DNA of 64,000 nucleotides from Escherichia coli. Lineage in GTDB: Bacteria > Pseudomonadota > Gammaproteobacteria > Enterobacterales > Enterobacteriaceae. This document shows positions 3,526 through 12,432 of this stretch, piece by piece. Below the pieces are notes generated by a model. It saw nothing but the letters and a program-made list of their open reading frames with translations. It had not been told where the DNA came from and did not search any database. A program made the translations under genes and the position numbers. Positions within the stretch are counted from its first letter, which is position 1. Each line of letters starts with the position of its first letter. The stretch lies in NCBI RefSeq assembly GCF_044647545.1, contig NZ_CP172818.1. One strand, written 5' to 3'.

Positions 3526-3921
3526 ATGTGTGAAGGATATGTTGAAAAACCACTCTACTTGTTAATCGCCGAATGGATGATGGCTGAAAATCGGTGGGTG
3601 ATAGCAAGAGAGATCTCTATTCATTTCGATATTGAACACAGCAAGGCGGTTAATACCCTGACTTATATTCTGTCGGAAGTCACAGAAATAAGCTGCGAAG
3701 TTAAGATGATCCCTAATAAGCTGGAAGGGCGGGGATGCCAGTGTCAGCGACTGGTTAAAGTGGTTGATATCGATGAGCAAATTTACGCGCGCCTGCGCAA
3801 TAACAGTCGGGAAAAATTAGTCGGCGTAAGAAAGACGCCGCGTATTCCTGCCGTTCCGCTCACGGAACTTAACCGCGAGCAGAAGTGGCAGATGATGTTG
3901 TCAAAGAGTATGCGTCGTTAA
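3526..3921 (+). CDS. caiF: carnitine-operon transcriptional activator CaiF
   Basis: 131 aa from ATG 3526 (MCEGYVEKPLYLL...), GGAG RBS upstream; ORF track gives a longer 166 aa upstream extension that I do not favour. Confidence 0.9.
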   Translation: MCEGYVEKPLYLLIAEWMMAENRWVIAREISIHFDIEHSKAVNTLTYILSEVTEISCEVKMIPNKLEGRGCQCQRLVKVVDIDEQIYARLRNNSREKLVGVRKTPRIPAVPLTELNREQKWQMMLSKSMRR

Positions 3922-3944
3922 TGTCATTTCGTTGATACCGTGCG

Positions 3945-4038
3945 ACCTGGTCGCCGGATGCGATGCTGGCGCATCTTATCCGGCCTACGGTTGCTTTACA
4001 GCCAGGTCGGATAAGGCGTTTATGCCGCATCCGACGAT
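3945..4038. repeat. REP/BIME palindromic unit cluster
   Basis: Two inverted gccggatgcg...cttatccggcctac-type REP units between caiF and caiE. Confidence 0.8.
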
Positions 4039-4039
4039 G

Positions 4040-4630
4040 TTACCGTTTCGGCGTCACATCCGTCGTCCCCTGCAAACGGGGACGATTTTCCTCCATTTGC
4101 CTTAGTGGTTGTGTTTCATGTAACGATGCATGACAGCGCCCGACAAGATCCTGATACTCTTTGGTATTCAACCGTTTCCAGTGTAACTCGTCGTCACTAA
4201 CACTGCGTACAGCGCGGGCTGGCGTACCCATCAACAACTGGCGTTTCTCGCCGCGAAAGCCCGCTTTGACAAAGCTCATAGCGGCAACAATGCTCTCTTC
4301 GCCAATGACCGCGCCATCCATAATCACGCTGTTCATCCCGACCAGTGCATCGCGACCAATCACACAACCATGCAGGATCGCTCCGTGCCCGATATGACCG
4401 TTTTCCCCAACGATGGTGTCAGTGTCGCAGTAGCCATGCATAATGCAGCCATCCTGAATATTGGCTCCCGCTTGCACGATCAACCGCCCGTAGTCACCAC
4501 GCAGTGAGGCGAGTGGGCCGATGTAAACACCGGCTCCCACAATCACATCGCCAATCAAGACCGCACTGGGATGGACAAACGCCGTCGGGTGAACCACCGG
4601 AATTAATCCCTCAAAGGCGTAATAGCTCAC
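4040..4630 (-). CDS. caiE: carnitine operon protein CaiE (hexapeptide-repeat transferase family)
   Basis: ORF 4040-4651; preferred start is GTG at 4630 ([15 protein letters not shown]...), giving 196 aa and no overlap with caiD; ATG at 4651 is the alternative. Confidence 0.9.
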
Positions 4631-9674: not shown

Positions 9675-11192
<1,518 letters not shown>

Positions 11193-11429
11193 TTAATTCC
11201 ACTGTGAAAACGAATATTTATTTTGCGTTCCCGTTTGTTTTATTTTTGTTAACATTTAATATAATTATTATTAACCTCGTGGACGCGTTAATGGCTAACT
11301 CATAATGGGTATTCAATTGGCTGCGTTCTGTGATGTTAGTCACAGTTTTTTATCGGGTAAAAACAGGGCATCTCTGTGTAAATATTCATTGTTTATCAAT
11401 GTGATGAGTTTGATTGTGAGTAAAAAAAT

Positions 11430-11585
11430 AGCATCTGACTTTCAATATTGGTGATCCATAAAACAATATTGAAAATTTCTTTTTGCTACGCCATGTTTTC
11501 AATATTGGTGAGGAGCTTAACAATATTGAAAGTTGGATTTATCTGCGTGTGACATTTTCAATATTGGTGATTAAAGTTTTATTTC
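11430..11585. promoter_or_regulatory. cai/fix divergent control region with repeated CaiF-type inverted-repeat sites
   Basis: TTTCAATATTGGTGA at about 11441, 11497 and 11556, each but the last paired with AACAATATTGAAA (11462, 11519); each pair is an 11-bp inverted repeat (TTTCAATATTG / CAATATTGAAA) with about 13 bp spacing. Confidence 0.75.
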
Positions 11586-11661
11586 CAAATTAAAGGGCGT
11601 GATATCTGTAATTAACACCACTGATATGAACGACGTTTCCTTCATGATTTCTGGAGATGCA

Positions 11662-12432
11662 ATGAAGATTATTACTTGCTATAAGTGCGTGCCTGATGAA
11701 CAGGATATTGCGGTCAATAATGCTGATGGTTCGTTAGACTTCAGTAAAGCCGATGCCAAAATAAGCCAATACGATCTCAACGCTATTGAAGCGGCTTGCC
11801 AGCTAAAGCAACAGGCAGCAGAGGGGCAGGTGACGGCCTTAAGTGTGGGCGGTAAAGCCCTGACCAACGCCAAAGGGCGTAAAGATGTGCTATCGCGCGG
11901 TCCGGATGAACTGATTGTGGTGATTGATGACCAGTTCGAGCAGGCACTGCCGCAACAAACGGCGAGCGCACTGGCTGCCGCCGCCCAGAAAGCAGGCTTT
12001 GATTTGATCCTCTGTGGCGATGGTTCTTCCGACCTTTATGCCCAGCAGGTTGGTTTGCTGGTAGGCGAAATCCTCAATATTCCGGCAGTTAACGGCGTCA
12101 GCAAAATTATCTCCCTGACGGCAGATACCCTCACCGTTGAGCGCGAACTGGAAGATGAAACCGAAACCTTAAGCATTCCGCTGCCTGCGGTTGTTGCTGT
12201 TTCCACTGATATCAACTCCCCACAAATTCCTTCGATGAAAGCCATTCTCGGCGCGGCGAAAAAGCCAGTCCAGGTATGGTCGGCGGCGGATATCGGTTTT
12301 AACGCAGAGGCAGCCTGGTCAGAACAACAGGTTGCCGCGCCGAAACAGCGCGAGCGTCAGCGCATCGTGATTGAAGGCGACGGCGAAGAACAGATCGCCG
12401 CATTTGCTGAAAATCTTCGCAAAGTCATTTAA
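11662..12432 (+). CDS. fixA: electron transfer flavoprotein beta-subunit-like FixA
   Basis: 256 aa from ATG 11662 ([14 protein letters not shown]...), GGAG RBS; ORF track's upstream extension rejected. Confidence 0.93.

Follow-up and report, generated by a model that had tools for sequence, protein, structure and literature searches.

The region between the divergent genes caiT and fixA of Escherichia coli carries, in the 64-kb window analysed here (the whole stretch of DNA under study), two complete palindromes and an unpaired third copy of their left arm. This raises the question of whether the array is an operator that was partly duplicated in one strain or the standard control region of the cai and fix operons, and of what role the lone third copy may have. 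An earlier note, made from the sequence alone, had read the array as two and a half copies of a ~57-bp unit carrying CaiF-type sites, and had suggested a partly duplicated operator.

The repeats themselves are sharply defined. In a repeat search of the window, TTTCAATATTGGTGA(T/G) begins at 11440, 11497 and 11556; the 16-mer TTTCAATATTGGTGAT occupies 11440–11455 and 11556–11571, and the middle copy, TTTCAATATTGGTGAG at 11497–11512, has one mismatch to it (final T>G), with a pitch between the three 16-mer copies of 57 and then 59 bp. The same search found perfect 11-bp inverted repeats separated by a 13-bp gap at 11440–11450/11464–11474 and at 11497–11507/11521–11531, so that the first two copies both have the perfect form TTTCAATATTG-N13-CAATATTGAAA, just as the earlier note had described. 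At the third copy the right-arm position (11580–11590, TATTTCCAAAT) is identical to CAATATTGAAA at 4 of 11 positions, and the half-site near 11556 is indeed without a partner. Exact copies of the 11-mer number five in the 64-kb window, every one of them inside a 127-bp stretch (11440–11566); at one mismatch or fewer there are seven, against 1.47 expected, a number reached by none of 100 shuffles. Each left arm is extended by GTGA, which in the palindromes is the left half of a CRP-like site at the centre, and the repeated word is therefore 15–16 nt long rather than 11, since it comprises a CaiF arm together with a CRP left half. Within each palindrome the 8-bp arm cores, CAATATTG, lie 21 bp apart, which corresponds to two helical turns and to one helix face, and the core is a perfect 8-bp palindrome by itself.

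These short binding motifs recur at a regular pitch, and there is no repeated 57-bp segment. Tandem Repeats Finder gave no report for the array even at score 30, and the inter-unit spacers (11475–11496 and 11532–11555) resemble each other at the level of shuffled sequence (p = 0.35). The similarity of units 1 and 2 after the left arm (p = 0.0002) is wholly due to the right arm. A tandem repeat of a 57-bp unit was rejected on the grounds of the missing tandem-repeat call and the unrelated spacers; the three motif copies and their 57/59-bp pitch stand, whereas the ~57-bp unit to which they had been attributed does not.

The genes that flank the array place it in the cai/fix region. On one side is caiT, the first gene of caiTABCDE, on the minus strand at 9675–11189 with its ATG at 11189 (open reading frame; RefSeq annotation of identical or near-identical DNA), and on the other is fixA, the first gene of fixABCX, on the plus strand at 11662–12432 with its ATG at 11662 (RefSeq annotation; NCBIfam PRK03359 FixA, 531 bits). 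The 472-bp region between them contains all the repeats, and the synteny of this divergent pair is the same in all enterobacterial loci. An intact cognate regulator of the repeats is encoded nearby, on the plus strand at 3526–3921: the 131-aa product of this caiF gene is 100% identical to K-12 CaiF and scores 220 bits with the NCBIfam equivalog NF008549 (cutoff 140). In the literature, F1 and F2, the CaiF sites in the cai-fix region, are given as 5'-TTTCAATATTG-N13-CAATATTGAAA-3', and binding of CaiF to the K-12 palindromes is cited as published (PMC12083890, PMC3680233, citing Buchet et al. 1999). CaiF bound to the two palindromes, jointly with cAMP-CRP, activates both divergent promoters, as has been published.

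Both complete palindromes of the window have exactly this sequence. The one farther from fixA (11440–11474) is identical in K-12-like strains, and the one nearer fixA (11497–11531) has arms that are invariant in all aligned strains, among which its sole SNP lies in the N13 centre, at 11515; each corresponds to one of F1 and F2, and the third copy at 11556–11571 does not conform to that sequence. Flanking genes and exact published site sequence agree, which bears out the earlier reading of the repeats as CaiF sites at the divergent caiT and fixA promoters. The F1 and F2 sites of K-12 (Buchet, Nasser, Eichler, Mandrand-Berthelot 1999, Mol Microbiol 34:562, as cited in PMC12083890 and PMC3680233) share locus and sequence with the window, whose spacing is that of K-12-like genomes and whose CaiF protein is identical; the sites themselves show no difference, and the unpaired third arm is present in K-12 too. 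Thus, we are confident that 11440–11571 is the standard CaiF/CRP operator array common to the caiTABCDE and fixABCX promoters, arranged as in K-12.

The intergenic region of the window was aligned with those of a K-12-like genome, O157:H7, strain B, R10 and RMDEC465. All of these carry three copies with the spacing seen in the window, and not one substitution falls in the five arms; against the K-12-like genome, the stretch 11430–11600 has four differences (11431, 11493, 11515 and 11586), all in spacers or in an N13 centre. K-12-like strains thus match the window in copy number and spacing, and what is seen here is the established operator layout, not a partial duplication peculiar to one strain. 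The comparison with K-12 that the earlier note had proposed as a check thus came out in the way that it had named as speaking against its own suggestion, and a duplication as a strain-specific event is refuted.

Beyond the aligned strains, 551 bp around the repeats were matched in 5,394 of the 5,426 complete E. coli genomes searched, and every match lies between caiT and fixA. The 171-bp segment 11430–11600 has at least 95% identity in 5,370 of 5,390 genomes, with at most 11 genomes below 80% coverage, and a 40-mer around the third copy is found exactly in 5,115 E. coli genomes and with 1–2 mismatches in 230 more. Megablast counts for exact 41-mers of F1/F2 were set aside as estimates of conservation, because SNPs in the N13 centre and the requirement for a 28-nt word make them too low. 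The operator segment also occurs on three plasmid records of the E. coli genome collection.

The only clear case of an array deletion found in E. coli is strain C6 (NZ_CP195945.1; locus L006, 1250–1606), in which, by alignment, the intergenic region is 357 bp long and a clean 116-bp deletion runs from the first to the third 16-mer, removing both palindromes and leaving a single arm. This deletion is predicted to abolish carnitine induction. That such deletions are rare in E. coli speaks for purifying selection acting on the array. The deletion shows that the direct repeats do recombine, and events of this kind presumably underlie the differences in unit number among genera. A separate loss is seen in strain GmM062 (L008, NZ_CM183653.1), in which an IS1X4 insertion, together with an adjoining deletion that reaches almost to fixA, has eliminated caiT, caiA, part of caiB and the complete operator.

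The DNA next to the array is far more variable. A spacer of conserved length and hypervariable sequence (11317–11422) lies between the CRP site on the cai side and the first CaiF palindrome: the window and K-12 have 38 differences in 11300–11499, whereas caiT and fixA on either side differ at about 1 position per 100 bp. Between the half-sites of the cai-side CRP site, K-12 has the six bases TGGTAT and the window GTTAGT, and the ~100 bp beyond represent a different allele. The allele of the window is present in 652 of 5,426 genomes, including ST38, ST405 and MS 69-1, and there are at least three alleles, RMDEC465 having a third. Their length is constant within 1–2 bp, and they share the conserved islands TCGGGT and AATCA(A/G)T as well as an A-tract. 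The consensus for IHF is WATCARNNNNTTR; the K-12 allele contains AATCAGTTTGTTA, which fits it, and the allele of the window has no such fit. Among the sister species compared, there was no obvious donor of a spacer allele.

Two other intergenic regions of the window also diverge. A second hotspot of divergence from K-12 lies in the convergent caiF/caiE intergenic region (3900–4100), with 27 and 26 differences per 100 bp, and is flanked by ~1% divergent coding sequence. The folA-apaH intergenic region (19562–19833) is ~270 bp long in the window and 77 bp in the K-12-like genome. Many E. coli, including O157:H7 and FDAARGOS_497, have a ccdA/ccdB toxin-antitoxin pair between folA and apaH; because the gap in the window contains no open reading frame of ccdA/ccdB size, it holds a remnant or a different filler. 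FDAARGOS_497 has a cai-fix region identical to that of the window and a different folA-apaH gap.

The CRP sites anchor the array to its promoters. Two CRP-like sites lie 57 bp apart in the centres of the palindromes: GGTGA-N6-AAACA at 11450–11465 (centre 11457.5), which agrees at 7 of 10 dyad positions, and GGTGA-N6-TAACA at 11507–11522 (centre 11514.5), which agrees at 8 of 10. The cai-side site, TGTGATGTTAGTCACA at 11329–11344 (centre 11336.5), has perfect TGTGA-N6-TCACA half-sites (10 of 10), and a CRP-like site is found at this cai-side position in all enterobacterial loci. After the third copy, the place of the CRP right half is taken by TTTTA, which agrees at 2 of 5 positions, and no CRP dyad exists there. 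A constant helical phase linking the cai-side CRP site with the distal palindrome was rejected, as the distance is 120.5 bp in the Escherichia/Citrobacter clade and 96.5–135.5 bp elsewhere. An Rfam scan for structured RNA in the region gave a spurious snoRNA only (E = 0.36, 15.7 bits against a gathering score of 75), and this candidate was also dropped.

RegulonDB v8 lists CRP at -69.5 of fixAp and describes this promoter as having a pair of CRP sites (PMC3531196). When the palindrome centre at 11514.5 is taken as -69.5, the fix transcription start falls at about 11584, and a consensus scan independently predicts a matching start: a sigma-70-like fixA promoter on the plus strand at 11549–11577, with a -35 hexamer GTGACA (11549–11554), a 17-bp spacer and a -10 hexamer TAAAGT (11572–11577), would initiate at ~11584. 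The start sites of cai and fix are reportedly 289 bp apart, and the positions reported for CRP are -41.5 at cai and -69.5 together with -126.5 at fix; in addition, a 50-bp segment overlapping the fix start is reportedly required for cai transcription. We take 11450–11465 to be the fix -126.5 site, and 11329–11344 is presumably the cai -41.5 site, which would place the cai start near 11295. The arithmetic fits, in that 11336.5 is 41.5 from 11295 and that 11295 plus 289 gives 11584. Because the CRP centres at 11336.5, 11457.5 and 11514.5 and the two hexamers fit them jointly, these numbers, which Buchet and colleagues reportedly gave in 1998, gain support, and the promoter/CRP geometry is well supported.

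This arrangement resembles the paired CRP sites of acsP2, with which RegulonDB compares fixAp, in having two upstream activator positions ~55 bp apart at one promoter. Unlike those of acsP2, the CRP sites of the window are nested in the palindromes of a second, pathway-specific activator, and the cai-fix arrays comprise from one to three nested units, depending on the genus, together with a constant promoter-proximal arm.

The predicted hexamers are less constant than the array. At the positions of GTGACA and TAAAGT, distant genera have sequences that are not promoter-like (e.g., TCAGGT, GCAGGT), and in O157:H7 (L002, Z852) a G for A at the equivalent of 11573 turns the putative -10, TAAAGT, into TGAAGT, which means that this lineage has a weaker promoter or that TAAAGT is not the -10 that functions. 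On the plus strand, the block GTTTTATTT (11576–11584), which begins ~5 nt after the unpaired copy, has near-maximal information content among 15 genus representatives, and a motif TGnTAnnT (11600–11608) follows it at 15–16 nt in all enterobacterial genera examined. TGnTAnnT is possibly an extended -10 or a 5'-UTR element, and the two together may mark an ancestral fixA promoter or 5'-UTR element. If TGnTAnnT is an extended -10, the start would lie near 11615 and the third arm would be centred at about -53, a conventional position for an activator. Since the E. coli hexamers are not conserved and TGnTAnnT offers an alternative, the place of the third copy relative to RNA polymerase is uncertain.

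The third copy, that is, the left arm with GTGA on the plus strand at 11556–11571, lies in the spacer of the predicted fixA promoter, at about -28 to -13, and was followed across the family by mapping the motif upstream of fixA in one genome per species. Divergent caiT-fixA synteny holds throughout the Enterobacterales loci, and in 41 of the 47 enterobacterial loci the fixA ATG is preceded, at a distance of 103–109 bp, by a plus-strand arm with two mismatches or fewer. At least 13 genera have this fixA-proximal arm, including Escherichia, Citrobacter, Salmonella, Pseudocitrobacter, Phytobacter and Pluralibacter, as well as Atlantibacter, Trabulsiella, Cedecea, Providencia and Proteus. When 15 genus representatives are anchored on the third copy, TTCAATATTGGTGA has near-maximal information content and the flanking bases are free to vary. 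The complete palindromes differ in number: Atlantibacter, Cedecea, Trabulsiella, Pluralibacter and two other enterobacteria have a single one, Escherichia, Citrobacter, Salmonella and relatives have two, and Proteus has three, which follow a strict 59-bp period. In every genus the terminal copy lies 58–61 bp from the nearest palindrome. The half copy is thus the constant element and the full sites are the variable ones, which is the opposite of what a partial duplication predicts. This comparative evidence makes the third copy an ancient component of the control region that selection has retained, and not a relic of a recent partial duplication. Outside the enterobacteria, Shewanella loci (L048–L059, L062, L066) keep divergent caiT and fixA, ~940–1,150 bp apart, and motif mapping upstream of fixA found no CaiF-type motif in this gap, which suggests a different regulator or an extra gene there.

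A hidden partner for the third copy was considered, but the signal is not strong enough to support one. A right arm at +24 agrees at 4 of 11 positions in E. coli, although a few genera reach 8–9 of 11. A direct or core partner at +21 agrees at 2 of 8 in E. coli; across genera it averages 3.6 of 8, where the background is 2.35 (sd 1.36).

What, then, could maintain an arm without a partner? In the published mechanism, CaiF that is active under anaerobiosis and with a carnitine-derived CoA ester co-activates both promoters together with cAMP-CRP. Each complete palindrome constitutes a CaiF site with a CRP-like dyad (GGTGA-N6-A/TAACA) nested in its 13-bp centre, and the third arm would serve as a promoter-proximal docking point for CaiF. 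It would be recognisable without a partner because its core, CAATATTG, is self-symmetric. Through docking at the third copy, the CaiF/CRP complexes upstream would be connected with RNA polymerase at fix, and the copy would also contribute to the promoter-overlapping segment that is reportedly necessary for cai expression, 289 bp away. The chance that the third copy is a genuine CaiF contact ('F3') in the fixA core promoter, and the invariant anchor of an array of one to three palindromes, falls somewhat short of even. Against CaiF docking there, about -22 would be an unusual place for an activator to make contact. As an example of a change confined to the core, CAATATTG at 11559–11566 can be replaced by CAGTCTTG with GTGACA and TAAAGT retained.

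The explanation that survives best beside a CaiF contact, although we consider it rather unlikely, is that the third copy is kept solely as core-promoter DNA for RNA polymerase, as spacer, -35-like TTG or UP-like AT-rich sequence, that CaiF does not touch it, and that its likeness to a CaiF arm merely reflects shared ancestry of the units. The copy does lie exactly between the predicted -35 and -10, it has no convincing partner arm, and the block GTTTTATTT just downstream is equally conserved without being CaiF-like; moreover, the CaiF sites named in the accessible literature number two, which counts against a contact at a third. Promoter spacers are normally without sequence constraint, however, and here 14 consecutive bases are near-invariant in genera whose -35 and -10 hexamers differ. 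The third copy also tolerates the same substitutions as the true, palindromic left arms, with any base allowed at position 0, A>G accepted at position 5 and no change elsewhere (positions 12–13 of the substitution table were fixed by the filter and are uninformative). In addition, the core CAATATTG, as an 8-bp palindrome, could be a self-sufficient binding unit.

A much less probable explanation is that the GTGA-bearing third copy is a CRP half-site or a site of another regulator, rather than a CaiF element. FNR, H-NS or NarL has been reported to influence cai/fix, the region is AT-rich like targets of H-NS, and in the unpaired copy the GTGA following the arm shows the same conservation as in the palindromes, in which it makes up the left half of the CRP site. 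Yet the sequence six bases past GGTGA, TTTTA, is without the C residues of a TCACA half, the conserved part extends beyond GTGA over the full CaiF arm, and the sequence contains no FNR-like TTGAT-N4-ATCAA. Finally, that the array is a partly duplicated operator whose third half-site was left by a recent or strain-specific 57-bp tandem duplication is very improbable: the regular spacing of 57 and 59 bp, the varying number of palindromes among genera and the recombination of copies in C6, which implies gain and loss of units over evolutionary time, would suit it, but K-12 and every other E. coli examined are arranged alike, the spacers retain no homology and no tandem repeat is called, and the half copy is constant in at least 13 genera while the full copies vary.

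The array is therefore the known K-12 CaiF/CRP operator, already characterised, and finding it here is ordinary. In the accessible literature that was searched, the third arm, its conservation across genera and the variation from one to three palindromes are undescribed, and no priority is claimed for the third arm, for its conservation or for the variation in palindrome number. CaiF and the fix promoter serve as an L-carnitine biosensor, in which the operator is treated as two sites (PMC12083890, PMC8085414). The conserved third arm and the natural arrays of one to three palindromes would offer variants for tuning the sensitivity and dynamic range of such a sensor, and the conservation suggests which bases to leave intact in promoter re-engineering. 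If the third arm is a real CaiF contact, this would refine a well-studied system modestly and be of some help in biosensor design. For the enteric bacteria as a group, the modest addition is that an unpaired third copy of the CaiF arm is ancient and conserved among them.
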